DNA from: Nanobdellota archaeon
Lineage (GTDB): Archaea; Nanobdellota; Nanobdellia; Woesearchaeales; UBA9642
NCBI GenBank assembly: GCA_021813435.1
Contig: JAKAKR010000012.1
Coordinates: 9,982 to 73,981 of the forward strand
Direction of reading: 5' to 3'
Length of the DNA: 64,000 nt
Made by a program: the position numbers and the translations under genes. Below the pieces are notes generated by a model. That model saw only the letters and a list, made by a program, of their open reading frames with translations, did no database searches and was not told the origin of the DNA. Below, piece by piece: positions 8,391-50,865 of this stretch (position 1 is its first letter; every line of letters begins with the position of its first letter).

Positions 8391-8394
8391 TTTG

Positions 8395-9507: not shown

Positions 9508-10624
9508 ATTTTTTTACAAAATTATATGCCTTTTCAGCTAAGCGATGTCTTCTGCCTTCGTTGTTCAGGTACTGTAGTATCTTAGATGCGAAAATGTTTG
9601 TATTTGCAAACGGAATCCATTCAACATTATCTCTCCAAATCGGCACAATTTCCTTAAGATCATATGCCAATACTGGAACTTGAGCAGCCATAGCCTCTCC
9701 AATAACTATCGCCCAGTTTTCTTCATGGCTCGGAAGGACAAATAATTTTGCAGATTTAATTATTCTAAATTTTAAATTGAAATCATATATGGCTCCCAGT
9801 AGTATAATATTTGAATCTAAATTATTATCAGTAATGAATTTATTTATTTTATCAATTACCTCCTTATTTCCATCTCCAATTATGACGAGTGTTGCTCCGT
9901 GTCTTTTTTTGCATACTTCTTTCCAGATACTTAGAAGATCTAATACGCCCTTACCGTAGTTCAAACGCTTAATAAATACTGCATCATAATTCTTCTTTTG
10001 GACGGGAATTAAATTTATCTTAGCATAGTCAACGCCACAATACACTACGCGGATTTTACGTGAGGGAATGTGTTTAGTGCATATCAGTTTATTTTTCGTT
10101 ACTTTGGACACTGCCAGGATTTCGTCTGAAAAGTATTTAATAAGAAGACCGCTGATAACTCTATTAAGCCAATATGAATATCTTACGAACGCAGGAGTAT
10201 TCCCACGCGTATCTAACCACGGATATTCTTCTACCCAATGATATGCTGCGATCCATTTACTTTTTTGGGCTAATTTCACTCTCAAGGCAGGAAGAACATT
10301 ATAAATATGTTCACATGAACTATACACTATATCATATTGACTGTTCATGTAGCGAGATTTTATTATGGTTAATAGCGTAATGTAAAAATTTGAGGAGAAT
10401 GATGAACTTACAGAATAATTTATTGCTATTAATTTCGTGTACGGCACCTTAAGCTTCTTTGTTAATTCTTTGCCATTTTTGTTTGTTAATAAATGTACGT
10501 CATATTCATTCTGTTGGTAAATATGTCGCATGATTTCGAATAGTCTAATATCCCCGCCCGATATTGCGACTTTATTGTTATCTTTTGTTATACCGGTTGT
10601 AATAAATAATATTTTCTTTTTCAT
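9470..10624 (-). CDS. Family 4 glycosyltransferase (GT-B).
   Basis: An EX7E motif is present (SHEENWAIVIGEAMA). The ATGA start/stop overlap with wecB is typical. Confidence 0.7.
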   Translation of the reverse strand: MKKKILFITTGITKDNNKVAISGGDIRLFEIMRHIYQQNEYDVHLLTNKNGKELTKKLKVPYTKLIAINYSVSSSFSSNFYITLLTIIKSRYMNSQYDIVYSSCEHIYNVLPALRVKLAQKSKWIAAYHWVEEYPWLDTRGNTPAFVRYSYWLNRVISGLLIKYFSDEILAVSKVTKNKLICTKHIPSRKIRVVYCGVDYAKINLIPVQKKNYDAVFIKRLNYGKGVLDLLSIWKEVCKKRHGATLVIIGDGNKEVIDKINKFITDNNLDSNIILLGAIYDFNLKFRIIKSAKLFVLPSHEENWAIVIGEAMAAQVPVLAYDLKEIVPIWRDNVEWIPFANTNIFASKILQYLNNEGRRHRLAEKAYNFVKKYDWNEIVKDEIK

Positions 10625-11685
10625 TTTAGCATGTTAATGATTCTTTCGGTAACCTTCTCTCCAAATGGGTTCATCCAGTCACGATCAGAATATATTAACT
10701 TCTCGGATGCTTTTTTTAGATTATCATATTCGTGATTAGAAAGTATTGATGCACCAACCTCAATTGTCTCAGGTCTTTCAGTGTTATCTCTCAAGGTGAT
10801 ACAAGGTGTTTTCAGTATGCATGATTCTTCTTGTATCCCTCCTGAATCTGTATAAACAATTTTGCTTTTAGAGATTAGAATTAGGGTGTCAAGATATTTT
10901 GTTGGTTCAATAACTTTGATAGATGTAGGTATAGTGATATGATATTTCGCAATGATATTGAGTGTTCTCGGATGTATTGGAAATACTATTTCTAACGAAT
11001 ATTCTTGGCTTATCCTATCAATTGACGATAAAAGTTGCGAAAGCTTCGTTGGATCATCAACATTCGAGGGTCTGTGCAATGTAAGTAAAGCAAAGTTATT
11101 TGATAAATTCAACGTATTTAATATTTCACTATTCTTATATGCAAGTTCTAGGTTACAATTGACTGCATCGGATATAGTATTCCCTGAAACTATTACCTTA
11201 TTCTCTGCGATTCCTTCCTTCAATAATATTTGTGCTTGTATACGCGTGGGGCAAAATAAATAGTCGGATATGTGGTCAACGAGTATGCGATTCTTTTCTT
11301 CCGGCATAGTATTATCATAGCTGCGCAGACCTGCTTCTATATGGACTAGTTTTATGTTCAATTTCGAAGCAGTCAAAGCGCCCGCTAAAGTGCTGTTGGT
11401 ATCACCTTGTACAATTACGTAAGTCGGCTGCTCTTTGATCAATATCGGTTCGATTTTTTGCATCATTGTTCCAGTTTGCTGGGCGTGGCTTGCTGATCCA
11501 ATATTTAAATTATATTTCGGATTAGGTAGCATTAATTCCCGAAAAAAAACAGAGTCCATATTTTCATCATAGTGCTGATTAGTATGGATAATAAAAAAAT
11601 TTATTTTTTTATTGAGGAGTTCTCTAATAATCGGACTAAATTTTATTATTTCTGGTCTAGTCCCTAAAACAATACAAATCATCAT
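10621..11685 (-). CDS. wecB: UDP-N-acetylglucosamine 2-epimerase (non-hydrolysing).
   Basis: Hallmark motifs GTRPEIIK, HTNQHYD and HIEAGLRS are present. Length is 354 aa. Confidence 0.85.
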   Translation of the reverse strand: MMICIVLGTRPEIIKFSPIIRELLNKKINFFIIHTNQHYDENMDSVFFRELMLPNPKYNLNIGSASHAQQTGTMMQKIEPILIKEQPTYVIVQGDTNSTLAGALTASKLNIKLVHIEAGLRSYDNTMPEEKNRILVDHISDYLFCPTRIQAQILLKEGIAENKVIVSGNTISDAVNCNLELAYKNSEILNTLNLSNNFALLTLHRPSNVDDPTKLSQLLSSIDRISQEYSLEIVFPIHPRTLNIIAKYHITIPTSIKVIEPTKYLDTLILISKSKIVYTDSGGIQEESCILKTPCITLRDNTERPETIEVGASILSNHEYDNLKKASEKLIYSDRDWMNPFGEKVTERIINMLK

Positions 11686-13463
11686 TTTAACCCCAATTTA
11701 CCTATACAATATGTTATTGATTCTGTCGCATAAACACTCACAGTTAATACACCTGCAATAGGATGCACAACCCAAGCAAAATTTCTATCCTTAAAAATCA
11801 TATAAACAGACTCTATGAATGGTCCCACAAATGTTGCCAAATAAATAATCGATAATACAAATTTAATGTTACTAGTATCTCTCATCCAGATACTTCCGAT
11901 ATTTCTGTCATAACGCCATAACACTTTACTCACTATCTTTTTTCTTTTTTTTACAAAATCAGTTAAAGAGTTGGCATAATAGTGATAGATGTATGCATTA
12001 TTAGGTATTGCGTAAGTACTATATCCTTTTGTACGCAAATAATTTACGAAATTGGCTTCTTCAAAAATCGAGGTATCTTTCCAGTATTTACTCACCAGGG
12101 TTTTGTTCCATAAAAATCCATTTGCTCCCGTAATATACGGTTTGTCGGGCATTTGAAAAATTAAAGAATAATATTTCTTATGCACCACTGTTCTAGGTGG
12201 AGTGCACAGCATTCGAGCAAGAGGGTCAGAAATTCTTAGAAGTGTACAATATTTATTAATTAACGTCATATTTGTATTTATTGTCATCTTTGATTCAACG
12301 CCAATAATATTTGTTTCGTTATGCATGGCGTATATCATGTTCAGTAACCAATATTCATTTGTGATTATATTATCGGAGTCTAGAAGTATAAAATATTCAG
12401 TTGTACATTTTTTTATACCTACCGCTTTCCCATATTCTGCTATACGATGGGGATTGTTCTCAATTTTAACATCATATTTCTTTGCGATATTCAAGGTATC
12501 ATCTTTCGAACCGCCATCGATTATTATTACATCGAATTTGTTTTTAGGATACTTTTGCATAAAAATTCCGTTCAAACAATCTACAAAGTATTTATCAGAG
12601 TTATAAGTCGTAATTATAAAAGTTACTGGAGGGTAATGTGACAACATCGGCTGACTTTCAATGTAACTTTTTAATCCCTTTTTAAAAGAAATGAACTCAT
12701 TCAATTTTAGGACAAAAAGCCCGAATAAAAGTAATGGATGCAATAATCCATTTATTAACACCTTAAAAGGACTGAATCTCTTAAAAATATTGCGTTGATT
12801 ATTTGAAATAACACGATTCTTTTTTTGATACAAATAAAAATATTTTGCGTAATCTTCCTTCTTTTTTTTGATATTTGAAATATTTAGCTCACCTTCATCA
12901 TGCATTAATAATAGTTTTGTACGATATATCTTGTTGGTATATTTTCGAATTCTATTGTTTAAATCCCAATCTTCAAAAGCATTTAAGTCTTCATCATACC
13001 CCCCGATTTTTAAAAAGACTTTTTTATCGAAAAATCTTGCTGCTTCTATTAAATCATTCCCAACGTAAAAGCTTCTCTCAAACGCCTTAACTTTAGCCCA
13101 ATACCCGATACCGATGGATTTCTCGGGAAGGATTATTGCTTTGCAATTCGTCTGCTCAGCAAGCTCAACGCATTCCTTCACAGAATCTTTATGAAAATAA
13201 ATATCTGAGTCATGAATAAGCAAATACCTTCCTTTAGATTTTTTTGCACCAAAATTTCGCTGTGCACTTCGTTCAGGACCTTTCGTATAGAATTTATCTG
13301 CATATTTTTTTGCTATTTCTGGTGTCTTGTCAGTACTGTTATTATCAACCACAATTAATTCAATATGTCTATAACTTTGATTCTTAATTGTTCTCAAACA
13401 TCTTTCCAAAGTTCTTCCGGAGTTCTTTGTTGTTATGATAACCGAAACTAATGGCTTATCCAT
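11682..13463 (-). CDS. Bifunctional glycosyltransferase with two tandem GT2 (GT-A) domains and a C-terminal membrane anchor.
   Basis: The first domain reads VSVIITTKNSG...DNNSTD...DSD. The second, around residue 280, reads VTFIITTYNSD...DGGSKDDT...DSDN. The tail is hydrophobic. Confidence 0.7.
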   Translation of the reverse strand: MDKPLVSVIITTKNSGRTLERCLRTIKNQSYRHIELIVVDNNSTDKTPEIAKKYADKFYTKGPERSAQRNFGAKKSKGRYLLIHDSDIYFHKDSVKECVELAEQTNCKAIILPEKSIGIGYWAKVKAFERSFYVGNDLIEAARFFDKKVFLKIGGYDEDLNAFEDWDLNNRIRKYTNKIYRTKLLLMHDEGELNISNIKKKKEDYAKYFYLYQKKNRVISNNQRNIFKRFSPFKVLINGLLHPLLLFGLFVLKLNEFISFKKGLKSYIESQPMLSHYPPVTFIITTYNSDKYFVDCLNGIFMQKYPKNKFDVIIIDGGSKDDTLNIAKKYDVKIENNPHRIAEYGKAVGIKKCTTEYFILLDSDNIITNEYWLLNMIYAMHNETNIIGVESKMTINTNMTLINKYCTLLRISDPLARMLCTPPRTVVHKKYYSLIFQMPDKPYITGANGFLWNKTLVSKYWKDTSIFEEANFVNYLRTKGYSTYAIPNNAYIYHYYANSLTDFVKKRKKIVSKVLWRYDRNIGSIWMRDTSNIKFVLSIIYLATFVGPFIESVYMIFKDRNFAWVVHPIAGVLTVSVYATESITYCIGKLGLK

Positions 13464-14491
13464 TTCTCAAGCCTCCCGATGTTTTTGTTCCAGTCTGCGT
13501 GTGTTCTTGCAAATGTTATTGATTCGGTAGCATGATATTGTGGATTTTCAATCATCTTGTCCATTGCAGTGCGCATTTCTTTAATATTCCTGCACATAAT
13601 TCCTGTCTTATTGGCGTCGCGTAGTCCGGGGACGTCATAGGTTATAGCTATTGTCCCATTCGCATTGGCTTCAGTCACGATGAGTCCCCACCCTTCACGT
13701 ACTGAGGTCACAAGTATCGCAAGACTTTTTGCCATAATCTTATCCCGCTCCATTAAACCAATCTGTCCAGTAAATACGACCTTTTGTTCCAGATGAAGTT
13801 TTCTTACGAGGCGCATAAGATCTTTTTTATAATCGCCATCACCAATAACATACAATTTCGCATCAACATCAACCATTGCCCGTATTGCATCCTGCGCCCG
13901 TTTGCTCTTCTTGAGCCTGCCACAAAACACGAATGCATGCTCCTTATCAGAAACATTCGACATTGGCGTAAAATCAATCTGGTTTTCAAGAACCAATATC
14001 TCTTTTGGATTCATCCAGGCATAAGAGACTAAATCATTCTTAGTGGAGTTTGAGACAACAAATGCGCGTGTACATGCATATAATTTTAGATAACACCATT
14101 CACAAACAATGCCGATTGTTGCAACGGCAATATTTTTTTCATAAAACCATACATCAAGCGCTAATTGGTGAAAAAACGCAACTCTCTTCTTGCGTGGAAC
14201 ATAGAGTGGGGTAAAAAATGGGACAGTATTCACCTGATCAATTACTAAATCATAATTACCTCGCTTATAAAATTTGTAGGCTTCAATATATACTGAGAGC
14301 GGGGTCCCAGAGCGGGCAATCGTATATCCATGATAATTCTCAGATTTTCTTGAGCCCTGAAACCTGCTTGAAAACAATGTAACAGAATGGCCTTCTCGAG
14401 CAAGTCCCGCAAGATAATTATCAGTCACGATCTCAGCACCGCCCTTAAGCGGATTCTTCATATCCCTCCATGCGAGCATGAGGATGTTCAT
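13448..14491 (-). CDS. Family 4 glycosyltransferase (GT-B).
   Basis: MNILMLAWRD...GGAE is a GT4 N-terminus. The C-terminal VREGWGLIVTEANANG carries the E..E motif. Confidence 0.7.
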   Translation of the reverse strand: MNILMLAWRDMKNPLKGGAEIVTDNYLAGLAREGHSVTLFSSRFQGSRKSENYHGYTIARSGTPLSVYIEAYKFYKRGNYDLVIDQVNTVPFFTPLYVPRKKRVAFFHQLALDVWFYEKNIAVATIGIVCEWCYLKLYACTRAFVVSNSTKNDLVSYAWMNPKEILVLENQIDFTPMSNVSDKEHAFVFCGRLKKSKRAQDAIRAMVDVDAKLYVIGDGDYKKDLMRLVRKLHLEQKVVFTGQIGLMERDKIMAKSLAILVTSVREGWGLIVTEANANGTIAITYDVPGLRDANKTGIMCRNIKEMRTAMDKMIENPQYHATESITFARTHADWNKNIGRLEKWISH

Positions 14492-15234
14492 TTGTTCTGA
14501 TAATACCTCAATATGTAGTATCTATACCATATCGCTAATGTGTCGATGAGCATTCCGCGCACTGTCTTGGTGTTTATTCCAGTGCCCGAATTCTTATAAT
14601 CAAGAGTGATAGGTGCCTCCACAATCCGGAATCCATGCTTATGGGCAAGAAAACATAATTCCAGATCAAAAGCATATTGTTTTACCAAGATATACGGCAT
14701 GATAATTTTTAGGACATCGCGCTTCATGAGTTTCAGTCCAGTCTGGGTATCATGCAATTTAAGTCCAAAAAACACGCGGATAAACATTGAATACCAAAAT
14801 GATAGTACGCGCCGAAAGAACGGATACTGCAGTTTAGAGAATGGATGCCTTTTTGATCCGACGACCATATCAGCTGCTGAAAGATAGGGATACATCCGCT
14901 TGAGTTGCAAGGGATCAATATCCATATCCGCATCAAGAAACGTAACCAATTCACCCGTCGATGCCTCAAATCCCTTCTTTAATGCATAACCCTTCCCATG
15001 ATTAGTCTTATAAGAAATGATCTTAATCCCTACAACCTTGCGCGCCTCGCGATAAGTATTATCCACATGCCCATCAATAACTAAGATAATCTCATAATCA
15101 GATACTACGCCCGAAAGCTTGCGCTTAATAACCTCAAGATTATTCCGGATAGTACGCCCTTCCCGATATGCAGGGATAATAATGCTTAATTTTTTCGACT
15201 GCATATAATAAAACCCCCTCGAAAGGAAAATCAA
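14488..15234 (-). CDS. Dolichyl-phosphate glycosyltransferase of the DPM1/AglD/ArnC type (GT2).
   Basis: LSIIIPAYREG...DGHVDNT...LDADMD is present in a 248 aa ORF. This is the typical short Dol-P-sugar synthase architecture. An alternative start at MQSKK is at 15204. Confidence 0.65.
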   Translation of the reverse strand: MIFLSRGFYYMQSKKLSIIIPAYREGRTIRNNLEVIKRKLSGVVSDYEIILVIDGHVDNTYREARKVVGIKIISYKTNHGKGYALKKGFEASTGELVTFLDADMDIDPLQLKRMYPYLSAADMVVGSKRHPFSKLQYPFFRRVLSFWYSMFIRVFFGLKLHDTQTGLKLMKRDVLKIIMPYILVKQYAFDLELCFLAHKHGFRIVEAPITLDYKNSGTGINTKTVRGMLIDTLAIWYRYYILRYYQNK

Positions 15235-41956: not shown

Positions 41957-42484
41957 TCAGGCAATCTGTTTTTGCATGAAGAAATAGACTTCATTGGATT
42001 TTGCAAGATGCCGCAGGAAAATCTTTCGCCCGGATGCGAGCGTCAGCTGCACTGTTCCTGTCGCAAAATACCGGTCGAACACATTGCTCGTATACCATAC
42101 GTTCCTGATACTCGTGTAGGGTATCTTCTCGACTCCTGCAGCGCGGATTTCAAGATACGCTTCGTAGAAGATATAAGTGATGCGCTGGTACTGCAGGTAG
42201 GCAAAGAGCGTTTCGAACGTGATCAGAAGGAGTATTCCGACGCCATAGAACATATTGAGCCATAGCGGGATCTGAATCTGCAAAAGATAATAGTTTATCG
42301 CAATCCCTGTATAGAGAAGCAGGGCAAGAAATATCAATGTGATCATCTTAATGATCAAGAATCGTTCAGGGACAGGATGCGTCTTTAACTTCGGGATATC
42401 AGGAAGATAATTCATGCTCACACTCTTTGTTAACATAAGTGAATAAGAGGTATTTAAAGATTGCTGTTGGAGGGTATTGTTCAA
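41957..42484 (-). CDS. Membrane protein with a bacterial-PH (DUF304/YdbS-like) domain.
   Basis: Two N-terminal TM helices are followed by a ~90 aa beta-rich domain. Confidence 0.35.
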   Translation of the reverse strand: MNNTLQQQSLNTSYSLMLTKSVSMNYLPDIPKLKTHPVPERFLIIKMITLIFLALLLYTGIAINYYLLQIQIPLWLNMFYGVGILLLITFETLFAYLQYQRITYIFYEAYLEIRAAGVEKIPYTSIRNVWYTSNVFDRYFATGTVQLTLASGRKIFLRHLAKSNEVYFFMQKQIA

Positions 42485-42537: not shown

Positions 42538-43029
42538 TTAGAATTTCCAGCCTTCTGCTCTGAATAATTCGACAACATCTATGGCTTCGATGGACTTCTT
42601 ATTGCAAACAAAAGGTATTCTTACCCTGTTTTCTCTGAGTTTTTCTTCAGTTACAACAATTCGTTTAATGCTGAACAATGTTTGTTGTGTACTTGATGTT
42701 AATTCGATAGCTAGAGCAATAACCCAAGGATCAGCATCGAACTTTCTTTCAGTATCAATTAATGCAGGATAATCCCTTAGTATTTCTTGGACTAGCTCAA
42801 TCTGACGTTGTGTTGGCTCTTTGAACATCTTCTTCTGGTTTTTAACCCATTTGCTAAGCATATCATCATTTTGCTTGATTTCGTTTAATACTTCTCTTGG
42901 TGCAATTAAGCGATTATTATCTGCTAAGAACTTGAGCTTCTCCCAGATACTTGGAAATACATCGATTGGGTTATTTCTGTTCAACTTCACTAAGGAAGAA
43001 GTATCGATGATGTAAACGTTATTAGTCAT
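42538..43029 (-). CDS. DUF4411-like PIN-related protein, the predicted partner/effector of the ImmA/IrrE metallopeptidase.
   Basis: A 163 aa ORF beginning YIIDTSSL. It has an ATGA-type overlap with the upstream ImmA/IrrE gene. Confidence 0.45.
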   Translation of the reverse strand: MTNNVYIIDTSSLVKLNRNNPIDVFPSIWEKLKFLADNNRLIAPREVLNEIKQNDDMLSKWVKNQKKMFKEPTQRQIELVQEILRDYPALIDTERKFDADPWVIALAIELTSSTQQTLFSIKRIVVTEEKLRENRVRIPFVCNKKSIEAIDVVELFRAEGWKF

Positions 43030-44189
43030 TTTTTCGCCTTTGAGAGTACCTTGTCAAAACTCTTTGATTTTATTGAAAGATAATTTAATGCATCGGTGTA
43101 TGTGATATGGTCTCTGTCATAGTTGTTGGCGACAAGAGAAACAAATTTATTTCCAACTTCAGAAAGACATCTTACTTCGGATGGAATTCCTCCGCCAGTT
43201 CCTTCTTCACCTTCTTTTTTTGTTGGTTTGATATCTTCTTTTTTGAATCTTGATAGGATTGCATCGTAATCTGTTCTTCCAATATAATTTAATTTGAGCA
43301 TATTCAAAAGAAGCATAGCTTTACTGACTTTGTATCTATTAGACAAGTATTTTAGAGTCTCTTTTTGAGTAAGCTTTGCTTTGTTCGTATCAAATGCTGA
43401 TTTTGCGATATCTTTTGGAAGCAAGAATGCTGATGCAAATTCATTGCACCATTTTTCAACATTATCTTTAAAAGTGTGTGTTGCATCAGGAAGATCTATG
43501 ACTGATTCTCCTAATAAAATATGACCAAATTCGTGCATTAGAGAGAATATTCTTGCTTCGATATTGTCTTTTGTGTTTACAACGATAACTGTTGGTGTTT
43601 CATCTACAAACACAAATCCTCGTGCATCTTCAACAGGCATTGAAAATTGGAATAAATAGATGTTTTGATCCTCAAGAATATCTCTTAAGTAATTGAAAAG
43701 TTCGTACGGTGTTTTGAATTTTCTTTGTTTTTCTTCAGTTAAATTAAATTTCTCTCTAAATTTAATGGCAATGTGTTCTGCATTATCAGAAATCTTGACT
43801 TTTTCTATTTTTGATTTTGTTTCATAATCTACATTTCGAGATAATTCTTTGCTTAGTTCTTGTAATCTTCTTGCATGTCGCATTACAAAAACAGTTTTTT
43901 TGTCAAATTTGTTAGTCTTATCTGGAAGCATCCTGTAATCTTTTGGCTTTGGTTTTTCTGTCAACGGTTTTGATAATAAGAATGACGCTACAGGTCTTTT
44001 GAAAATGATTGCTAATTCTTCCAATTGCCTAAAAGATGGTTTCTTCTCACCAGATTCCATCTTTTCAATATTTTGAGTGCTAGTGTTTAGACGCTTCGCT
44101 ATTTCTTCTCTTGTCCATCCTGAACTCTCAATAAGCCATTTCAGGACAGATGGTTCAACATTCACAGCGATTGGTTTCGTTCTAGCCAT
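43026..44189 (-). CDS. XRE-family HTH fused to an ImmA/IrrE (COG2856) zinc metallopeptidase.
   Basis: N-terminal HTH (TREEIAKRLNTSTQNIEKMESGEKKPSFRQLEELA) and a C-terminal HEXXH motif (LMHEFGHILLG). Confidence 0.75.
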   Translation of the reverse strand: MARTKPIAVNVEPSVLKWLIESSGWTREEIAKRLNTSTQNIEKMESGEKKPSFRQLEELAIIFKRPVASFLLSKPLTEKPKPKDYRMLPDKTNKFDKKTVFVMRHARRLQELSKELSRNVDYETKSKIEKVKISDNAEHIAIKFREKFNLTEEKQRKFKTPYELFNYLRDILEDQNIYLFQFSMPVEDARGFVFVDETPTVIVVNTKDNIEARIFSLMHEFGHILLGESVIDLPDATHTFKDNVEKWCNEFASAFLLPKDIAKSAFDTNKAKLTQKETLKYLSNRYKVSKAMLLLNMLKLNYIGRTDYDAILSRFKKEDIKPTKKEGEEGTGGGIPSEVRCLSEVGNKFVSLVANNYDRDHITYTDALNYLSIKSKSFDKVLSKAKK

Positions 44190-44222
44190 TTTAGTCAGTT
44201 AGTGTTTCTTTCTTGATTAAGT

Positions 44223-44681
44223 TTATTCTTCTTTTTTCTTCTTAAATCTTTCTTTGATTTTTCTGATTAATCCTTTTGATAATTCTACATTGAAAAAAGT
44301 CAAGTCTATAAGTGTAAATAATCCGATGCTAAATGCAAGGGTCAAAGCTATTGTTATTTTTATAGTGAAACTGATGTATGTATTGATGTATTTATTGTTT
44401 GTTTCATATATTGTAATTACATTCTGATTAACTTTGGAGATTGCATCCGTAAGTAAGGTTAAATCTGATTTAGTAACTACTGTTTTATTAAGTTCTTCAT
44501 AGTTTTGTTGACAAGTTTTCAATTGCTCCGAAAGATTTTTGGCTTGTTCTATTGCAGTGTTATCAACTACCACATTTGTCGGAGGGTTAGCTACAGAATT
44601 AAGTTGAGAAATAAGTACTGGCGTTATGATTGCCAAGAATACTAATGCAATAATCCCTGAAACAATCTTTTCGACGCTCAT
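44223..44681 (-). CDS. Small membrane protein with N- and C-terminal TM helices flanking a coiled-coil segment. It is translationally coupled to the RM gene.
   Basis: A 152 aa ORF whose ATG overlaps the stop of the upstream RM ORF in an ATGA-type junction. Confidence 0.45.
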   Translation of the reverse strand: MSVEKIVSGIIALVFLAIITPVLISQLNSVANPPTNVVVDNTAIEQAKNLSEQLKTCQQNYEELNKTVVTKSDLTLLTDAISKVNQNVITIYETNNKYINTYISFTIKITIALTLAFSIGLFTLIDLTFFNVELSKGLIRKIKERFKKKKEE

Positions 44682-47600
44682 TTTAACGAATCCTCGATAA
44701 GCTTCTGTTCTTTTGCGTTAACTCCATATAGTTCATAAATTAAAGAGTTAATTTGCGGTTCAATAGCATCTATTTGCCTGGATATGATTTCTTGATCAGA
44801 TGTCAATTTCGAAGCATTGAATTTCTTTTTTAATTCGATTATATTTGTTACAGATGCAACAATTTTATCGTGAGATTCTTTTTCTTTTTTATTATTGAAA
44901 TCGATTTGTTTTATTGGTATTTCCCCAGAAAACTGCTTGTTTGTAGCGTAGAATCCACCACTCAAAAAGATGCTTATCTTGCTGATAAAAAATGTTGCAA
45001 GAGTACTATTTAAAATGGATAATAAATACTTTTTATCCTCTTTGATTTCTTTTTTCAAGGTAATTCCATTCACACCTACATTTTTAATGAAGATTGAACC
45101 TTCTTCATCAATCGCCGAGCGAGCTCTTTTTACAACATGGGGAATTAATATTTTGGATAATCTTTGTTTATCTATTGCTTGATTTCTGCTGTATTGATAC
45201 CATCCAGAATTATTGAATTTTCCTTTTTCTCTATCCTTAAGTTCTTTTTTAAAGATGCTTAAGTAATCCCAACACATTTTGTATTTTTGGATTTCTTTTT
45301 CTTCCAAAAGTTTTCCATCTTTATATGGAAAAATAATATAAGCATCACTTTTCCCAATATAATAATTATCTATATCGCTATCACCTATGATGTTAAAAGT
45401 TACCTCTGATTCTATTTCTACATTTTTATCCATTTTTTTAGAGTAAAAAATTCTAGTTTTTCCCTTATCTTCTATTAGCTTAAGGATGTATACATCATCC
45501 ATCCCCGTAATTAGACCTTGAAAATTCAATTCGAAGCAATCTTGAAATTTCTTATTTTTTCTTATCTTTTCAAAGAGTTTTTCTTCTTCTTCTGTCATGA
45601 AATACCATTTATCTTCATTGAGGAAGTGCGGTTCGATTTCGTCAATGACAAAATTATCTTCATTTTCTTTTGCTTCATTCAAGAAATATGTGATTTTTTC
45701 ATCCTTATTTTTATACAATCCTCGAATCTCTTGATATGTTAATGAAGACTGTTGCTTTTTATTCTGCAAAAACAGTAAACAAGTGTACGTGTCTGCTTTG
45801 CTGAAGACAAAATAATGCCTGAAATTTGTTAAGTGATATATGTTAAAGTTTTTGATATGCTTTCTTAGATTTGAACCATATTCGCTATTAAAAAATCTAT
45901 TGGGACAAATAAAGCCGAGAACACCATTTTTATTTAATAATGAAAGTGATCTCTCGATAAATGGAACATATATATCTACATTTCCATCTTGAGCGGTTTG
46001 ATATTTTTTTTGATAAAATGCAGTTTCTTCAGGATAAAATTCAATTAATTTCTGAATTTGAATATATGGGGGATTTCCGATAATTGCATCAAATCCTCCC
46101 TCTTTCATCACGTTACCAAATCCTTTAATTGAATCAGCCCAATTGAAAATATTGACTCTTCTTGTTGTATCCATATCCGATAGAGTTAACTGGGTCTCTT
46201 GATAAAATTCAGAACCAATTAATGAATTTCCGCATTTAATATTATCGTCTAAGTCAGGAAGTACTCTTTCTTGAATTAACTTCATTTGTTGATCTACGCT
46301 TTCTTTGGTTTCATTTTCCAAAACTTTTAGCAATAAACTCAATTTTGTAACTTCTACCGCTTGCGAGTCAATATCCACGCCATAAATATTATTTAATAGG
46401 ATCTTCTTTTTTCTCTCAGAAGTTAAAGCCCATTGATTTTCTTTTATCTGAAAAATATCTTTTTTGAATTTTTTTGGATCATTTTTTATGTAATATTTCA
46501 AATGATATTCTAAGAGATAAGAATATGCGCCTAATAAGAAACTTCCAGAGCCACAAGCAGGGTCTAAAATTCTTATGCTTTCAATTTCTTTGGGCGTTTT
46601 ACCTTTGAAAACCTTGCCGACTGTGTTTTTAACCACATACTTTACAATATAAGAAGGAGTGTAGAAAATTCCACCTGCTTTTTTTACCTCTGGTTTTTCT
46701 TCAACCTTAGCTTGGTGTGATGTCGTTAGTTTTATCACTTTTCCCAAGAATTGCTCGTATACATTACCTAAAACCTCAACACCGATAACGGTAAACTCAT
46801 AGGGGCAGATTGGATAATATAATTCCAGAATAATGCTTTTTAAGACAGAATCGTCAATCTGAATTTTAGTGGTAATTTTATCTGGCTCGAGATTGAAGAT
46901 TCCACTATTGTATTTTTCGTCAGCATATTGAAAATAACTTAAAATCTCTTTGTAAACATTTGAACTTGATGAAATTTCTTTTAATCGCTCATATCGTTCA
47001 ATACTATGATCTTCACATATTCTTAAAAATAAGATTCTATCTATTGTTATTTGAACTGCAAAATTCAACTCGTAAATCGATAAATCTTTATTTCTCGAGG
47101 CAATATTCTTCGCTAAAATTTCTCTCCATTTTTCAATTTCTTTCAAAAATTCTTCATCAACTTCAGTAGTCCCCTTTTTCCCTTTTGATGATTCTATAAA
47201 TCTATCAAAACTTCCTCTTAAAACATATTCTTTTGAAAATGATGTAAATATTTCTTCAAACTTTTCTTCATATTGTTCGAAAGTGAAATACCATATTCTT
47301 CCAGCACTGGCTTTATCTTTTTCAGAAGGTTTACTTGTACAATCATAAACAGCGAACTCTTCAAAATCAGTAAGAATTGATATTGGTAATTTAGCGTTCC
47401 ACGCGTAACGTTTTAATTGAAATGCAGGTTCTGGTGCATCTTTGATATTTACTGCTGGCTTTTTTGCTTCAACAAAAAACTTTCTCACTCCACCTATTCT
47501 AAATCCGTAGTCGGGTGCTTTTGTTTTACCGCTGATTTTAAGAGAATCTTCATTTACAACTTCTTTATATTGTTCAGCATGACCTTGCTCATTATCAACA

Positions 47601-47761
47601 TCCCATCCAAGAATTTTAAAAAATCTATCAACATATTCTTTCCTAACTTGAGCTTCATTATATGTGTCTTTTTTATATTGAGAATAGCTCTCTTTAAATT
47701 GTGCAACTAACTTTTTAAGTTCAATTTTTGCCTGTTCTTTAGTTAATTGTGTAAGTACCAT
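44678..47761 (-). CDS. Type IIG/IIL restriction-modification enzyme (MmeI-like, with fused PD-(D/E)xK nuclease, gamma-class N6-adenine methyltransferase and target-recognition domain).
   Basis: N-terminal PD...EAK nuclease motif (PDYGFRIGGVRKFFVEAKKP), MTase motif I DPACGSGSFLLGA and motif IV IIGNPPY. Length is 1027 aa. Confidence 0.8.
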   Translation of the reverse strand: MVLTQLTKEQAKIELKKLVAQFKESYSQYKKDTYNEAQVRKEYVDRFFKILGWDVDNEQGHAEQYKEVVNEDSLKISGKTKAPDYGFRIGGVRKFFVEAKKPAVNIKDAPEPAFQLKRYAWNAKLPISILTDFEEFAVYDCTSKPSEKDKASAGRIWYFTFEQYEEKFEEIFTSFSKEYVLRGSFDRFIESSKGKKGTTEVDEEFLKEIEKWREILAKNIASRNKDLSIYELNFAVQITIDRILFLRICEDHSIERYERLKEISSSSNVYKEILSYFQYADEKYNSGIFNLEPDKITTKIQIDDSVLKSIILELYYPICPYEFTVIGVEVLGNVYEQFLGKVIKLTTSHQAKVEEKPEVKKAGGIFYTPSYIVKYVVKNTVGKVFKGKTPKEIESIRILDPACGSGSFLLGAYSYLLEYHLKYYIKNDPKKFKKDIFQIKENQWALTSERKKKILLNNIYGVDIDSQAVEVTKLSLLLKVLENETKESVDQQMKLIQERVLPDLDDNIKCGNSLIGSEFYQETQLTLSDMDTTRRVNIFNWADSIKGFGNVMKEGGFDAIIGNPPYIQIQKLIEFYPEETAFYQKKYQTAQDGNVDIYVPFIERSLSLLNKNGVLGFICPNRFFNSEYGSNLRKHIKNFNIYHLTNFRHYFVFSKADTYTCLLFLQNKKQQSSLTYQEIRGLYKNKDEKITYFLNEAKENEDNFVIDEIEPHFLNEDKWYFMTEEEEKLFEKIRKNKKFQDCFELNFQGLITGMDDVYILKLIEDKGKTRIFYSKKMDKNVEIESEVTFNIIGDSDIDNYYIGKSDAYIIFPYKDGKLLEEKEIQKYKMCWDYLSIFKKELKDREKGKFNNSGWYQYSRNQAIDKQRLSKILIPHVVKRARSAIDEEGSIFIKNVGVNGITLKKEIKEDKKYLLSILNSTLATFFISKISIFLSGGFYATNKQFSGEIPIKQIDFNNKKEKESHDKIVASVTNIIELKKKFNASKLTSDQEIISRQIDAIEPQINSLIYELYGVNAKEQKLIEDSLK

Positions 47762-47769
47762 TTTATGAC

Positions 47770-47913
47770 CTAAGCTTTTTTTATTTCCTCTAATTCTTTT
47801 TTCATAAGCGTCTCAACTTTTCTAGAAAGAATCATATCGTTTTCTTCACAGTACTTCTTGTACTTCTCGTAAACTTTTTCGTCAAGACTTAATGCAAAAG
47901 TTTTCCTACCCAT
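47770..47913 (-). CDS. Ribbon-helix-helix (CopG/Arc-like) small protein, 47 aa, not in the ORF track. Possibly a controller or antitoxin of the downstream RM operon.
   Basis: Manual translation gives MGRKTFALSLDEKVYEKYKKYCEENDMILSRKVETLMKKELEEIKKA. This is a beta-strand then two helices, typical of RHH. It ends 9 nt before the RM start. Confidence 0.5.
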   Translation of the reverse strand: MGRKTFALSLDEKVYEKYKKYCEENDMILSRKVETLMKKELEEIKKA

Positions 47914-48281
47914 ATAAACACATATAATCCCATATACTTATAAATTTATCGCAAAAAAAGTTTTAAGACACATAAAATCATATAAAGAAAAAAACTGATT
48001 TCTATTTTTTATGAGAGAGTAGACTCTTAATGTCCTTAAAAAGAAATCAGAGCTCTTTCATCCAGACTGGACTCGAGATGTTACTACTATTGACTCCAGT
48101 GGCTCAAAAAACAGGGAAGAGAGATACAACATAAAATTAGGAAAATAAAACAATGGGCTTTCCCCTGTTTTCAACATCACTGAACTGAGAAGTAGTAAAT
48201 TGACGTTTCATTTATAGAAGAGAGAATGAGAGAGTAAGTAGAGTATGGTAGATGTAAGAATATTATAGATTGGTCACTGTA

Positions 48282-48983
48282 ATGGATTTGTACATGAAGG
48301 GCGTTAGCTATCGATCAATTGCAGACCACTTAAAGCAAATCTACGGACTTGAAGTAAGTCATATTACGGTTTTGAACTGGGTTAATACTTATCTGACAAA
48401 GATTACCGAATATGTCAAGTCTATGCAACCGCAAGTCGGAGACTACTGGCTTGCAGATGAACAATTCATCAAAGTCAAAGGCAATCAACAGTATGTCTGG
48501 AATGTACTTGACAACAAAACAAGATTTCTTTTAGCAAGTAATGCAAGTAAAACAAGAAACTATGAAGATGCGAGAAGAACCTTCAAACGAGCAAAGAAAG
48601 TTGCTGGCAAGAAAGCTAAGACAGTGGTCACAGACGGCTCATTCAATTATTCAAAAGCCGTAAGAAAAGAATTTGCAACCTATCAAAATCCTAAACCTCA
48701 CAAGCGTTATGTTTCATTAAGACAGAAGACAGGAAATAACAATAAGATTGAACGATTCCACGAAACTTTCAGGCAGAGAGATAAAGTAATGCGCGGATTC
48801 AAAGGAAATCAAAAGAAATACGCAGAGAACTTTCAGACATACTATAATTTTGTAAGAAAACATTCAAAGATTGGTATGACTCCTGCTCAAAAAGCGAAGA
48901 TAGATCAGAAAGCAGACTGGAAAGAACTTCTAACCAAAGCAATGCAAAGTCCAGTGCCTGAAAATCACACAAGACCAGTGTAA
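48282..48983 (+). mobile_element. IS6-family (IS26-like) DDE transposase gene.
   Basis: Architecture and blocks parallel IS26 Tnp: N-terminal HTH (YRSIADHLKQIYGLEVSHITVLNWV), WLADEQFIKVKG (D), VVTDGSFNYSKA (D) and NNKIERFHETFRQR (E). Candidate imperfect IRs are ttggtcactgtaatgg (48270-48285) and attgacagtggacaaa (49061-49076). Confidence 0.75.
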
Positions 48984-49146
48984 ATCACTGGACTCATGTC
49001 AAGTCTATTGAGCAGTTTACGTTTGAAAATAGGTCGGACTTGACAAGCAAATTCTCAGAAATTGACAGTGGACAAATTATTATTGCATAATCTTAACACT
49101 GGACTTCCTCCAAAATTCTTTTCTACATATTTCCTATTTCTCACTG

Positions 49147-49640
49147 TTGGTCTCACTGTCGGTTTTGATTTTTTGCCTACAGGTTTGCCTACTGGTTTCA
49201 ATTCAGGCGGTTAGTTTCTCGGTTAGCTTTCAAAATGTGATTTGCCACTACAGGGTTCACTACTGGCTTCAATTTTTAGAATCATCTTTATGTGTCCATT
49301 CTCATTTTCAGAGACTGCGTCTGAGACTGGGTTTCAATATGTCCCCTTCCCTTCTTAGCCTGTTAGAAAGCCGGTTTACACCAAAAACACAACAAAAATG
49401 GTTTATATACCCCCGCCCCTCCGACTACTGGCTTGACTACAGGTTCCAAAAAAATCACTGTTAGATTCTCAGTTAGGACCATATGAACAAAGAAAGAGTT
49501 CTCACTTACCTTTCAGTTAAACCTGACTGTTAGACACCAAGAAAAAGTCAATTTCCTCAGTTAGACCCCCTGCCTGTCAGAACATCCGCCACTTAACGGA
49601 TAGGATTGACATCCACAGGGTGAACAATACGCTGTTGGAG
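49147..49640. repeat. Non-coding tract of degenerate short repeats (motifs ACTGG[CT]TTCAAT, CAGTTAG and ACTGTTAG recurring every ~70-95 bp).
   Basis: Examples are cctactggtttcaattcagg, cactactggcttcaattttt, gactgggtttcaatatg and gactactggcttgactacagg. There are also ctcagttaggacc, tttcagttaaacctgactgttag and cctcagttagacc. No long ORF is present. Confidence 0.5.
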
Positions 49641-49705
49641 GGTAGGATACCAAGAAGGATCATTGTTTAGAAAGATTAATAAAAACATCAAGCCATAGAA
49701 CGGTG

Positions 49706-50692
49706 ATGCAGAACCAAAAGCTACTTGAACAGAAATTTTTTGAAAGAATCAATCACAAGGGCAAATTAGAAGAGATATCCCGAAATGTCTGCCGGGATTA
49801 TAATTTAGGCGATTTTGTTTCCCACAAGCTTATCCCCATTGGTTATGAGGATTTCAATTATGCGCTGGAAACAGACAAGGGCAAGTATTTCGTCAAGGTG
49901 TTTGCAAAATCGCGGACAATCGGTGAATGCAAAAGAATAACCCGGATTATCAAAGAGACGTCATCTGCAAATGTTTCGACCCCAAAACTACATCAATCGA
50001 ATCAGGGGATATGCTATTCAATAAAAAATCCGCATACACAACTCCAGCTCTGCGTCCTTGAATATGTCGACGGCAAGACGATACACGACCTGCATAAACC
50101 ATTGACAAAAAAAGAGATACAATTCATTGCAAGACAGGCAGCGCGCATCAATACGCTTCACATAAAACCATCGTTCATCTATGATGAATGGGCAATACCT
50201 CATTTTTTGAGAGAATACCGCAAAAAGGGCAAGTATCTCAATGCGAAGGACCGCGCGCTCATTGATCAACTTATCACAGCGTATAAGAAATTAAAGTTGG
50301 ATACGCTCCCGCATGCATTTGTCCACGGCGATATATTAACGACTAATATTATCAAGGATACGCATAGAAGGCTATGGATAGTGGATTTTTCTGTAGCAAA
50401 CTATTATCCGAGAATTCAGGAACTTGCGGTTCTTGCATGCAATCCACTCTTCGATGAAAAGAACAAGGACAACAGCGAATACCAATTACAATTGGCGTTA
50501 AAAGAATACCAGAAGATCATTCCATTAACCCGAAGGGAGCAAGATGCACTGCCGACATACATCAAATTGGCGCATGCCATGCATCTATTATCAGCAAATT
50601 ACCAAAAAGTAGTCATGCATAATGTTTCTGAAGAGAATATATATTTCTTGAATCAGGGCAGAAACGGATTGAAACAGATGGGTAAATCATAG
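49706..50692 (+). CDS. Aminoglycoside phosphotransferase (APH)/choline-kinase-like family kinase.
   Basis: Catalytic loop HGDILTTNII (HGDxxxxN) and the metal-binding IVDFSVA (DFx equivalent). Length is 329 aa. Confidence 0.65.
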   Translation: MQNQKLLEQKFFERINHKGKLEEISRNVCRDYNLGDFVSHKLIPIGYEDFNYALETDKGKYFVKVFAKSRTIGECKRITRIIKETSSANVSTPKLHQSNQGICYSIKNPHTQLQLCVLEYVDGKTIHDLHKPLTKKEIQFIARQAARINTLHIKPSFIYDEWAIPHFLREYRKKGKYLNAKDRALIDQLITAYKKLKLDTLPHAFVHGDILTTNIIKDTHRRLWIVDFSVANYYPRIQELAVLACNPLFDEKNKDNSEYQLQLALKEYQKIIPLTRREQDALPTYIKLAHAMHLLSANYQKVVMHNVSEENIYFLNQGRNGLKQMGKS

Positions 50693-50700
50693 ATCATAAA

Positions 50701-50773
50701 TGGGCCCGACCGGATTCGAACCGGCGACCTTCTCCACGTCAAGGAGACGTCATAGCCACTAGACTACGAGCCC
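50701..50773 (-). tRNA. tRNA-Val (anticodon GAC).
   Basis: The reverse complement folds as a cloverleaf: acceptor GGGCTCG/CGGGCCC, anticodon stem TCTCC/GGAGA with loop TTGACGT, T-arm GCCGG-TTCGAAT-CCGGT, discriminator A. A TATA-like TTTATTTATAAA lies ~28 nt upstream (50796-50807). Confidence 0.8.
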
Positions 50774-50865
50774 ATTGCCATGCAAGATTCAAAATTTATT
50801 TATAAATGTAATGATTTATCGCGCGTCATCTTTAGCGCCCTATTTTTGCAGATGGCACGGTGTTA

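Follow-up and report, generated by a model that had tools for sequence, protein, structure and literature searches.

Organisation of the island

Five open reading frames are tightly packed on the minus strand at positions 42538-47913 of the window, the 64-kb stretch of DNA analysed here. In reading order, they encode an Arc-like ribbon-helix-helix (RHH) protein, a Type IIG restriction-modification (RM) enzyme, a two-TM membrane protein, an HTH-M78 protein and a DUF4411 PIN protein. A first-pass annotation had described five co-directional, nearly overlapping genes that are richer in A+T than their surroundings, and this description is accurate for every ORF. The RHH and RM genes are separated by 8 nt, the RM stop and the start of the membrane-protein gene share 4 bp, a 33-nt gap precedes the HTH-M78 gene, and the start of the DUF4411 gene overlaps the HTH-M78 stop by 4 bp. 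The GC content is 0.312 over 42538-47913; it is 0.427 across the rest of the window, and the sequences immediately on either side have 0.44-0.47. The island is not the sole low-GC block of the window: a cluster of glycosyltransferase genes (about 4-14.5 kb) is just as AT-rich.

Directly upstream, an IS6-family-like transposase gene (48270-48983, plus strand) is read divergently from the operon; its product matches Pfam DDE_Tnp_IS240 (E=2.3e-19) and scores 120.9 bits against NCBIfam transpos_IS6, under the cut-off of 125. Terminal inverted repeats were looked for at this gene and none was found. A 14-nt direct repeat, GCTGTTGGAGGGTA, occurs exactly twice in the 64 kb, at 42463-42476 and 49631-49644 (both on the plus strand), where shuffles give an expectation of 0. 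The two copies, possible borders of the island, bracket 7.2 kb comprising the five genes, the IS6-like gene and a repeat-rich non-coding stretch. Because of the GC content of 0.31 against 0.43, the adjacent IS6-like gene and this unique bracketing repeat, we regard the operon as probably foreign, acquired horizontally by a DPANN (Woesearchaeota-like) archaeon.

Predicted promoter and RHH protein

The first gene of the operon (47770-47913, minus strand) encodes 47 residues that match PHROG 3180, 'Arc-like repressor', over their full length (E=1.9e-7), bearing out the earlier placement of a small RHH gene in front. Pfam gives sub-threshold matches only, to DUF6364 and CcdA, and these recur at that level in 20/20 and 10/20 of the homologues, respectively. 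The RHH profile matches PDB 2KEL, the RHH structure of SvtR from SIRV1, with E=0.011, and the predicted model consists of an extended N-terminal strand and two helices. The 40 homologues are 68-95% identical; the few with source names belong to Woesearchaeota or Nanoarchaeota.

Upstream of this gene, a predicted archaeal promoter and operator can be read from the sequence at 47914-47990 (minus strand). The TATA box, TTTATAA, at 47938-47944 occupies positions -31 to -25 from the RHH ATG, which implies that the transcript would be leaderless or nearly so. Three 20-nt direct repeats containing ATATG (47907-47926, 47917-47936 and 47965-47984; repeat family D1) overlap the start region. The same TATA box and an ATATGGG / ATATGT / ATATGGG layout are found upstream of a 67%-identical RHH gene at locus L025, where the RHH gene and conserved promoter head a non-RM operon, RHH-107aa-104aa-TA, ending in the same toxin-antitoxin (TA) pair as the island. 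We infer that 47914-47990 functions as promoter and operator and that the RHH protein is an autorepressor, which would hence repress the whole operon.

The Type IIG restriction-modification enzyme

The RM enzyme (44678-47761, minus strand) is a single chain of 1027 residues, matched over residues 10-1020 by the PADLOC model REase_MTase_IIG PDLC03604 (E=1.3e-246). PADLOC and Pfam profiles delineate an N-terminal PD-(D/E)XK nuclease, a gamma-class N6-adenine methyltransferase of the Eco57I family and a TaqI_C-type target-recognition domain (TRD), the Pfam matches being Eco57I (1.5e-44), MmeI_Mtase (4.7e-16), N6_Mtase, TaqI_C and HSDR_N. The catalytic motifs are intact: the nuclease motif D84...E98-x-K100 is invariant across six related enzymes, and DPACGSGSF and NPPY are present in the translation. 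Relatives in the PDB are adenine-specific DNA methyltransferases (7LNI and others), M.BseCI and M.TaqI, and an identical protein is found on 13 public contigs.

The prediction of a single-polypeptide Type IIG enzyme is thus confirmed. The label 'MmeI-like' that went with it is apt for the general layout: as in Eco57I- or MmeI-type members of the Type IIG class, the nuclease, gamma-class methyltransferase and C-terminal TRD are joined in one polypeptide, and the island has no separate methyltransferase gene. The label does not extend to a closer relationship. Eco57I, TaqI_C and HSDR_N fit best in Pfam, and MmeI_Mtase is the only MmeI-specific model hit; the Pfam search did not detect MmeI_N, MmeI_hel or MmeI_TRD, and the PDB search matched no MmeI structure.

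A two-TM protein of restriction operons

The third gene (44223-44681, minus strand) encodes 152 residues, of which about 6-24 and 107-125 form hydrophobic segments; the C-terminal tail is basic. This is in keeping with the small membrane protein annotated previously. By the positive-inside rule only, the predicted topology is N-in/C-in, which would place a conserved helical segment of about 80 residues outside and the basic tail in the cytoplasm. The AlphaFold model is all-helical and of low confidence (pLDDT 69, pTM 0.32). No significant match was found in Pfam, NCBIfam, PADLOC (v2, PDC models included) or PHROG. We collected 17 homologues, and among 1.84 billion representatives only four clusters, which are archaeal, fall below 1e-10.

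In a small sample of 13 intact contexts, the gene lies in every case inside or directly after a Type I or Type IIG operon, either between hsdS and hsdM or directly after the Type IIG gene. The order RM then membrane protein is a recurrent one. Eleven contexts, with RMs of two types, have no TA pair. The protein represents an undescribed family, which in the sampled contexts is confined to restriction operons, and is the novel element of the island. Embedding in RM, BREX or DISARM loci is a signature by which new defence genes have been nominated ('guilt by embedding'; Payne et al. 2024 preprint; PADLOC PDC models). The membrane protein shares this embedded placement, but it matches none of the PDC genes, is confined to a handful of archaeal clusters and is a candidate only for an antiviral role. 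Our best guess is that it assists the RM enzyme at the cell membrane, either by tethering or sensing or in the capacity of a guarded membrane effector.

The HTH-M78/DUF4411 pair

The last two genes encode a putative HTH-M78 (ImmA/IrrE) antitoxin of 387 residues (43026-44189, minus strand) and a putative DUF4411 PIN-like toxin of 163 residues (42538-43029, minus strand). The former matches HTH_3 (E=1.2e-8) and Peptidase_M78 (E=1e-17) in Pfam and RmrA (E=4e-23), capP (E=1.2e-16) and capH (1.8e-5) in PADLOC; against NCBIfam antitox_spr1629 it scores 81 bits, under the cut-off of that model. The latter matches Pfam DUF4411 over its full length (E=1.4e-29) and PHROG 11126 (E=5.5e-17), and matches no PADLOC RmrT model. 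Both domain assignments of the first-pass annotation stand. Its remark that such pairs had been 'proposed' as TA-like or phage-sensing modules named the correct class and was an understatement, a homologue, VapBC52, having been solved and characterised.

VapBC52 (Rv2515c/Rv2514c) is from M. tuberculosis, and its complex is PDB 9VZY; the antitoxin cleaves itself when bound to ssDNA, the toxin cleaves tRNA, and the system experimentally protects against phages (PMC13273310). Like the island pair, it comprises an antitoxin of about 390 residues (HTH, M78 HExxH peptidase and C-terminal domain) and, after it, a PIN toxin of the DUF4411 family with about 160 residues. The HExxH, the third Glu ligand, the aromatic-Arg linker motif and the PIN acidic residues are common to the two. 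Residues 11-383 of the island antitoxin align with 2-385 of 9VZY chain A (E=8.6e-22), and the toxin aligns with the DUF4411 protein of 9VZY/9VZZ (E=1.5e-9) at DTS..., ...EV..E..., ADP(W/F)VIALA and VVT(E/Q)E, with the acidic active-site positions kept. Mapping through the chain A alignment and the VapBC52 paper (PMC13273310), we find that the antitoxin retains an HEFGH zinc site and the third ligand Glu, that Y85-R86 aligns with the F75-R76 cleavage motif of VapB52 (Y-R for F-R), and that Ile occupies the position of the cysteine-switch residue, C229. The island pair is archaeal and distant from VapBC52, and it lies behind an RM gene with a 33-nt leader, whereas VapBC52 stands alone. The pair is a full-length VapBC52 homologue of RosmerTA-like character. 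Since the cysteine-switch residue is missing and the homology is only distant, the trigger here may differ from that of VapB52.

The 33-nt leader (AAACTTAATCAAGAAAGAAACACTAACTGACTAAA; 44190-44222, minus strand) is kept in the window and at loci L005 and L022, and it is at this leader that the similarity of the window to both loci begins; at L022, it stands behind a Type I HsdR gene. The perfect direct repeats of stand-alone TA copies are absent from it. Some 26-30 nt ahead of the antitoxin ATG, the leader contains a weak TATA-like element, CTTAATCA, so the pair may also have a promoter of its own.

Modularity across related loci

Nine TA contexts, a small sample chosen for long contigs, were compared. 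The HTH-M78 gene is translationally coupled to DUF4411 in all nine. An RM gene lies directly upstream of the pair in five, and in the other four the pair is alone or accompanied by non-RM genes. The RM-TA linkage thus recurs, and the order is RM then TA. TA copies that are 84-96% identical stand directly behind four other RMs, which are only 30-39% identical or of Type I, in different genomes and with different outer flanks; the supposition of a more than chance linkage between the RM and the HTH-M78/DUF4411 pair is borne out by these divergent partners. In other RM-TA loci, a SEC-C protein or a 105-aa ORF stands in place of the membrane protein, or there is no linker gene. An RM/membrane/TA cassette at 84-90% identity is present in another genome with other flanks and no RHH gene, and the TA pair of L022 is a mosaic, its antitoxin being 90% and its toxin 70% identical.

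The earlier treatment of the five genes as one unit does not survive this comparison, given that the TA pair also occurs alone, the RHH gene and promoter head a non-RM operon, and the membrane protein occurs without the TA pair. Three modules are separable: the RHH gene with its promoter, the RM enzyme with the membrane protein, and the TA pair. Within the island, the five genes are most likely co-transcribed. This is plausible because of their spacing (8 nt, -4, 33 nt, -4) and because RM-linked TA copies have leaders of only 11-77 nt, without the direct-repeat operators found at stand-alone copies. RM and TA could also be adjacent without cooperating, through ordinary clustering in defence islands or because a particular insertion site is preferred.

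Relation to known systems

The Xre-COG2856+PIN class has been defined already (PMC2701414), the position of DUF4411.1 downstream of HTH-DUF955 has been described (PMC5499597), and RosmerTA systems with PIN-like toxins have been reported at the ImmA antitoxin node (PMC10440598). The island pair belongs to this Xre-COG2856-PIN / RosmerTA class, described in 2009-2022. RosmerTA (RmrT/RmrA; Millman 2022; Ernits 2023, PMC10440598) likewise combines a Zn-peptidase (ImmA) and HTH antitoxin with a variable toxin; the validated RmrT toxins cited are of undefined function or membrane-depolarising, whereas the island toxin is a DUF4411 protein.

Operons in which a regulator, an RM system and an embedded TA module are combined are also known, and the enzyme and the TA pair of the island are of known kinds. 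The claim that its architecture is not a described one was therefore too strong. In the RptR-Type I RM-DarTG2-M48 ('RRDM') island of EPEC (PMC12255303), the first ORF is a small repressor whose binding sites are three direct repeats that overlap the promoter, and RM and TA share one operon. The island resembles it in having a predicted small repressor first, three repeats at the promoter (a predicted operator), and RM and TA genes. The parts are not homologous (RHH versus helical RptR, Type IIG versus Type I, HTH-M78/PIN versus DarTG2). The island TA is at the 3' end whereas that of RRDM lies between hsd genes, and the island has an archaeal TATA promoter and an extra two-TM protein. EcoprrI-PrrC, an anticodon nuclease in a Type Ic RM locus, shares with the island the joining of a translation-targeting RNase to RM as a suicidal back-up. 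PrrC consists of one HEPN/ABC protein, and the RM complex itself keeps it silent, whereas the island toxin has a dedicated antitoxin in a pair that also occurs without RM.

Proposed working of the island

Overall, we consider it reasonably probable that the island is a horizontally acquired DPANN defence operon, assembled from three separately mobile and likely co-transcribed modules, that layers restriction with growth arrest or abortive infection. The RHH protein would repress its own TATA promoter through the ATATG repeats, and thereby the whole operon. The Type IIG enzyme would methylate host DNA and cut unmodified incoming DNA, with the membrane protein made by translational coupling to it, and the modules may be linked physically or by signalling. 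By homology, the HTH-M78 antitoxin would keep the DUF4411 PIN RNase inactive until ssDNA, built up through viral replication, DNA damage or the processing of restriction fragments, caused the peptidase to remove the antitoxin's own N-terminal domain; the freed toxin would cleave tRNAs and stop translation. Restriction would thus act first, with growth arrest or abortive infection second.

Instead of a defence layer, the TA pair, carried at the 3' end by mobile RM cassettes, might be a module for addiction or stabilisation that kills cells losing the island, so that the linkage reflects selfish co-mobility and not antiviral cooperation. The apparent mobility of the island (low GC, IS6-like gene, flanking repeat), the movement of the RM/membrane/TA cassette as a block between genomes, the mosaic recombination at L022 and the classically addictive nature of TA systems (PMC2701414) are all consistent with this. 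We nevertheless think it unlikely, given that the homologues VapBC52 and RosmerTA confer experimental phage protection and that an ssDNA-activated, self-cleaving antitoxin is designed as a sensor and not as a simple unstable antitoxin; the two roles are not mutually exclusive. Slightly less likely still is an obligatory integration of all five genes into a single system, with the RM enzyme, membrane protein and TA pair physically or allosterically interdependent; the RM complex might, for example, hold the toxin or a membrane effector in check, as EcoprrI does PrrC. Every part is also found without the others, the RM and TA genes tolerate different linkers or none, VapBC52 is a self-contained two-protein system, and a TA pair of 90% identity cannot have become co-adapted to RM enzymes that share 30% identity or belong to a different type. 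These observations stand against the tight packing with its two 4-bp overlaps, the RM-then-TA order despite unrelated or other-type RMs, the constant RM association of the membrane protein, the lack of an obvious operator in RM-linked TA copies, and the PrrC precedent.

It is very improbable that the HTH-M78 protein serves mainly as a CapH/CapP-like or ImmR/ImmA-like switch that de-represses the RM operon on DNA damage, with DUF4411 a minor passenger. The capP and capH matches point in this direction, as do the resemblance of the middle domain of VapB52 to the CapP structure and of its N-terminal domain to the RM controller C.Csp231I, and a COG2856-Xre fusion was earlier proposed to be a LexA-like regulator (PMC2701414). 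However, the gene closes the operon at its 3' end, a long way from a promoter that has its own RHH protein and RHH-type repeats, conserved with L025. Moreover, its coupling to DUF4411 is invariable in the nine contexts, and in the crystal structure the homologue binds and neutralises its toxin.

Organisation of the island

The island spans window positions 42538-47913 and comprises five near-overlapping, A+T-rich genes on the minus strand, as the first-pass annotation had proposed. From the ORF reading, these encode, in gene order, an RHH protein (47 aa; 47770-47913), a Type IIG RM enzyme (1027 aa; 44678-47761), a membrane protein (152 aa; 44223-44681), an HTH-M78 antitoxin (387 aa; 43026-44189) and a DUF4411 toxin (163 aa; 42538-43029). 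The RHH and RM genes are separated by 8 nt and the membrane-protein and antitoxin genes by 33 nt; at the other two junctions the genes overlap by 4 bp. The GC content is 0.312 across the island, compared with 0.427 in the remainder of the window and 0.44-0.47 in the immediate flanks. The interpretation that had been placed on this arrangement, that of a layered restriction and abortive-infection unit, is supported in part by the analyses described here.

The restriction enzyme

Nuclease and methyltransferase are combined in the single 1027-residue polypeptide. The PADLOC model REase_MTase_IIG matches residues 10-1020 with E=1.3e-246, and Pfam assigns an HSDR_N nuclease to residues 68-145 and Eco57I/N6_Mtase to residues 330-653 (Eco57I, E=1.5e-44), together with TaqI_C. 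The nuclease motifs expected of such an enzyme are retained, the PD-(D/E)XK triad of D84, E98 and K100 (D84...E98-x-K100) being unchanged across six homologues with identities of 28-86%. SAM motif I, ILDPACGSGSF, and motif IV, IIGNPPYI, are present in the translation, and both align to the adenine-specific DNA methyltransferase structure 7LNI. Judged from its sequence, this protein is an intact single-chain Type IIG enzyme.

Its earlier description as 'MmeI-like' holds for the single-polypeptide RM character, for the layout and for a match to MmeI_Mtase, but not beyond. The MmeI_Mtase match, at 59 bits, is overlapped by the stronger Eco57I match of 152.6 bits; none of MmeI_N, MmeI_hel, MmeI_TRD and MmeI_C is matched in Pfam at E<=0.01, and a search of the PDB with the protein returned no MmeI chain. 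On these searches, the resemblance to MmeI is one of layout only.

The HTH-M78/DUF4411 pair

In the 387-residue protein, Pfam finds HTH_3 at the N-terminus and a Peptidase_M78 domain with the motif HEFGH. Its residues 11-383 align at E=8.6e-22 with residues 2-385 of chain A in PDB entry 9VZY, the VapBC52 toxin-antitoxin complex of M. tuberculosis (PMC13273310). The homology covers the NTD, the peptidase/HTH middle domain (MD) and the CTD. VapBC52 is a 1:2 antitoxin:toxin complex in which the antitoxin cleaves itself at the NTD/MD linker, a reaction induced by ssDNA, and in which the toxin cleaves tRNA; phage resistance has been reported (PMC13273310). The zinc site is kept in the window protein, with HEFGH aligned to HEFVH and the glutamate of VEKWC aligned to E245 of VapB52. 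The two antitoxins differ at the cysteine-switch residue C229 of VapB52, where the aligned position holds Ile, and at the F75-R76 self-cleavage motif at the NTD/MD junction, to which Y85-R86 is aligned; in the alignment, the latter is a conservative change.

The identification of the 163-residue protein as DUF4411 was borne out: it is matched over its full length by the Pfam family (E=1.4e-29) and by the DUF4411 chain 9VZY_D (E=1.5e-9), and from sequence and homology its PIN acidic residues are intact. It lies directly downstream of the antitoxin gene, as the likeness to VapBC52 would have it, and the same gene order is found in 9/9 contexts, with a 4-bp overlap in the window. Pairings of this kind have been described before. 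Xre-COG2856 fusions with PIN toxins were predicted as a class (PMC2701414), DUF4411.1 was placed downstream of HTH-DUF955 (PMC5499597), and PIN-like partners were noted at the ImmA/Rosmer antitoxin node (PMC10440598). By homology, we assign the pair to the VapBC52 / Xre-COG2856-PIN class, of which it is a RosmerTA-like member. The comparison with PADLOC was positive for the enzyme and for the antitoxin, which matches 15 models of RmrA (best E=4.1e-23), the Zn-peptidase (ImmA) antitoxin, often with an HTH, of the RmrT/RmrA systems. No RmrT model matches the toxin, whose sole PADLOC hit, to PDC-S70, is weak (E=2.3e-4); for this reason the pair is not counted as a canonical RosmerTA. Viral carriage was considered and rejected, an IMG/VR scan having found no relatives of the HTH-M78 protein; PHROG families exist for both proteins of the pair.

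Genomic contexts of the toxin-antitoxin pair

Homologues of the antitoxin below 1e-10 number 796, and over 100 of them are 60-97% identical. We retrieved a small sample of nine distinct contexts of the pair, and in five of them an RM gene ends 11-77 nt upstream on the same strand. Besides the window, these are L005, which carries the same cassette at 84-90% identity, L021, with an 891-aa Type IIG enzyme and an SEC-C protein, L022, with a Type I system in the order M-x-x-S-R, and L023, with an 894-aa Type IIG enzyme and a 105-aa ORF. The four contexts in which RM is absent are L024, L025, L026/27 and L028/29. The RM-linked copies are 84-96% identical to the pair in the window. The RM proteins beside them either share only 30-39% identity or belong to another type, and no two of these loci have the same outer flanks. 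Similarity at the DNA level begins at the 33-nt leader and stops about 15 nt past the toxin stop codon.

Perfect direct repeats lie just upstream of the antitoxin ATG in the stand-alone pairs and are lacking in the RM-linked copies; they are likely to be operators for the HTH domain. In L029, AAGTTGGTGATGCAT occurs twice (4530-4569), and in L026 TAATATTC(A/G)TAG occurs twice (5940-6000). The identities within the pair are themselves uneven. When the pair in L022 (6001-7649) is compared with that in the window (42538-44189), the antitoxins are 90% identical and the toxins only 70%, while for L021 the toxins are 96% and the antitoxins 90% identical. This mosaic suggests that toxin and antitoxin genes have recombined.

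The membrane protein

Searches of Pfam, NCBIfam, PADLOC and PHROG gave no significant match for the 152-residue protein. Two segments of its chain are hydrophobic and its C-terminal tail is basic; by the positive-inside rule the conserved segment of about 80 residues between the TMs is predicted to lie outside the cell. The AlphaFold model is all-helical and of low confidence (pLDDT 69, pTM 0.32). The protein has 17 homologues; an exhaustive search of 1.84 billion representatives with its profile yielded four clusters below 1e-10 and about 20 weak full-length relatives of the same layout. No relatives were found in the IMG/VR scan for viral carriage. When the remaining embedded ORFs in the retrieved RM loci were searched with HMMs built from the family and from its weak relatives, no distant members came to light.

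In 13/13 retrieved intact contexts, again a small sample, the gene for this protein lies in an RM operon; recurrence beside RM genes is seen for the pair as well. Seven of the operons are Type IIG, with the membrane-protein gene directly after that for the enzyme (the window, L005, L012, L013, L014, L017 and L018), and six are Type I (L007, the JGI contig, L009, L015, L019 and L020), in which it usually lies between hsdS and hsdM, its start and stop overlapping those of its neighbours. In L016, the gene is truncated by an IS whose transposase is unrelated to the IS6-like one near the island. Both RM types that carry the membrane protein share an adenine methyltransferase and a TRD. Some membrane proteins that are 50-54% identical go with Type IIG enzymes that share only about 30% identity. 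Among the intact contexts, the toxin-antitoxin pair accompanies the membrane protein only in the window and L005. The strictness of this association in both RM types speaks for a role connected with RM, for instance as tether, sensor or guarded effector. A simple cytoplasmic partner is hard to reconcile with the prediction that the most conserved part of the protein faces outwards.

N-glycosylation sequons number 88 in 36 family members against 65 expected from shuffles, an excess too weak to serve as evidence for an extracellular loop. The MNKKGQ N-termini of some members prompted consideration of a class III (pilin-type) signal peptide, which was rejected: the hydrophobic stretch begins 7-8 residues past the Gly, and the leader is missing in half of the family, the window protein included.

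Other genes recur in these loci. A Zn-ribbon protein (83-94 aa) and a Bro-N protein (279-283 aa) are found beside the membrane protein in L014 (794-1891) and L016 (1516-2654); the Zn-ribbon motif also terminates the 263-aa SEC-C protein of L021 (5198-5989), and a Bro-N protein of the same size recurs beside the toxin-antitoxin pair in L026 (8111-8950). These genes appear to come from the same pool of shuffled accessory genes. The Type I operons of L007 (2465-8034), L019 (7004-12499) and L022 (71-1629) contain many further embedded family-less ORFs of 70-723 aa, TPR- and SWIM-containing proteins among them, and their stops and starts all overlap.

The RHH protein and its promoter

For the 47-residue protein, the evidence favours an Arc-like RHH. 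It is matched over its full length by the Arc-like repressor family PHROG 3180 (E=1.9e-7), and its profile reaches the RHH structure of SvtR from SIRV1 in the PDB at E=0.011. In Pfam, DUF6364 scores 21.8 bits, below the cut-off of 27.3, and CcdA likewise falls below its cut-off. In the structural model, residues 1-11 are extended and are followed by helices at residues 12-24 and 31-46.

The start of the RHH gene is overlapped by three ATATG repeats at intervals of about 10 nt, which are conserved in L025. There, a 67%-identical RHH gene heads an RHH-107aa-104aa-HTH_M78-DUF4411 operon that has no RM gene, and its upstream sequence keeps TTTATAA at -31 to -25 and the repeats ATATGGG, ATATGT and ATATGGG. 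This upstream region resembles an archaeal TATA promoter, with putative RHH operator repeats lying over its start. L005, conversely, has the RM/membrane/toxin-antitoxin cassette and lacks the RHH gene. Together, the related loci show that the island resolves into three modules: the RM enzyme with the membrane protein, the toxin-antitoxin pair, and the RHH protein with its promoter.

A possible mode of action

In the scheme that we consider, all five genes would be co-transcribed from a single promoter repressed by the RHH protein, and the RM enzyme would restrict unmodified DNA. Should infection proceed and ssDNA accumulate, the antitoxin would cleave itself and the PIN toxin would arrest translation. 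It is tempting to link the two layers by supposing that processed restriction fragments could supply the ssDNA signal; if that link holds, it would explain why the pair is so often found behind RM genes. In the fullest version of the scheme, the membrane protein would be a dedicated partner, in DPANN archaea, of Type I and Type IIG enzymes built on an adenine methyltransferase. It would either station the enzyme at the membrane, at the point of entry of foreign DNA, or serve as a membrane effector freed when restriction is inhibited. With the VapBC52-like pair at the end of the operon triggered by restriction-fragment ssDNA, the genes would no longer be a loose island but three layers wired into one system. 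We regard this version as rather unlikely. Should the modules instead prove independent, the locus would be a defence island that is ordinary and easily annotated.

The claim that such an architecture had not been described was too strong. The RptR-Type I RM-DarTG2 operon of EPEC (PMC12255303) is a precedent, and the island falls within the broader group of RM-embedded genes, which includes PrrC, a nuclease embedded in an RM locus, and genes recognised through guilt by embedding; these systems have no parts homologous to those of the island. Three features appear to be new: the recurrent arrangement of RM followed by HTH-M78/DUF4411 in DPANN archaea, the operon frame led by an RHH gene and, above all, the RM-restricted two-TM family.

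The logic of 'embedded in RM' has yielded validated defence genes in bacteria, and it nominates the two-TM protein as a testable new gene family; if this protein links restriction to the membrane, it would bear on a long-standing question, the cellular site at which incoming DNA is met by restriction. The repeated attachment of the same toxin-antitoxin pair to very different restriction systems is natural evidence for a selected coupling of immunity and dormancy. DPANN archaea have tiny genomes and reportedly few RM and CRISPR systems (PMC12988326). The island presents a compact solution to defence, which combines a single predicted promoter and repressor with a single-chain restriction enzyme and a sensor-toxin pair.

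Probable acquisition of the island

The window corresponds to contig JAKBRV010000003.1 of assembly GCA_021845245.1, and the RM protein is identical on 13 public contigs. The named close homologues of every island gene are labelled Woesearchaeota or Nanoarchaeota, which points to a DPANN archaeon as the host. A gene for an IS6-family-like transposase lies directly upstream of the island (Pfam, NCBIfam). The sole significant flanking repeat is a 14-nt direct repeat, GCTGTTGGAGGGTA, present in exactly two copies in the 64 kb (42463-42476 and 49631-49644; 0 expected), between which lie the five genes together with the transposase gene and a non-coding stretch rich in repeats. The low GC content, the transposase gene and the GCTGTTGGAGGGTA pair point to a 7.2-kb insertion. 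An empty site that would confirm it was not found, nor were IS6 terminal inverted repeats. The tRNA-Val gene (50700-50774) was considered as the integration site and rejected, its 3' end not being repeated at the other border.

Each copy of GCTGTTGGAGGGTA sits upstream of a flanking gene, encoding a bPH-domain protein in one case and an APH kinase in the other, and a shared TGAACAATAC motif adjoins both copies in opposite relative orientation. The stretch at 48984-49702 covers some 700 nt, and the ORFs listed in it are all short (about 50-105 aa). Short degenerate repeats are frequent there: CTACAGGTTTGCCTACTGGTTTCAATT occurs three times, and 12-nt units such as TCTCACTGTTGG/TCTCACTGTCGG form several tandem pairs. 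No Rfam family matches the stretch at threshold.

Low GC is not unique to the island, since a block at 4000-14500 is equally AT-rich (GC 0.30-0.35). Its overlapping minus-strand genes encode GT2 and GT4 glycosyltransferases, a UDP-GlcNAc 2-epimerase, a SAM methyltransferase and several family-less ORFs, and the block is probably a surface-glycan cluster that has been exchanged horizontally. The APH-family kinase gene (49703-50692) adjoins the RM island, and a homologous gene lies beside an unrelated Type I RM and membrane-protein operon on a contig from another metagenome (JGI 3300072015). This recurrence could reflect an insertion hotspot or a co-travelling gene.
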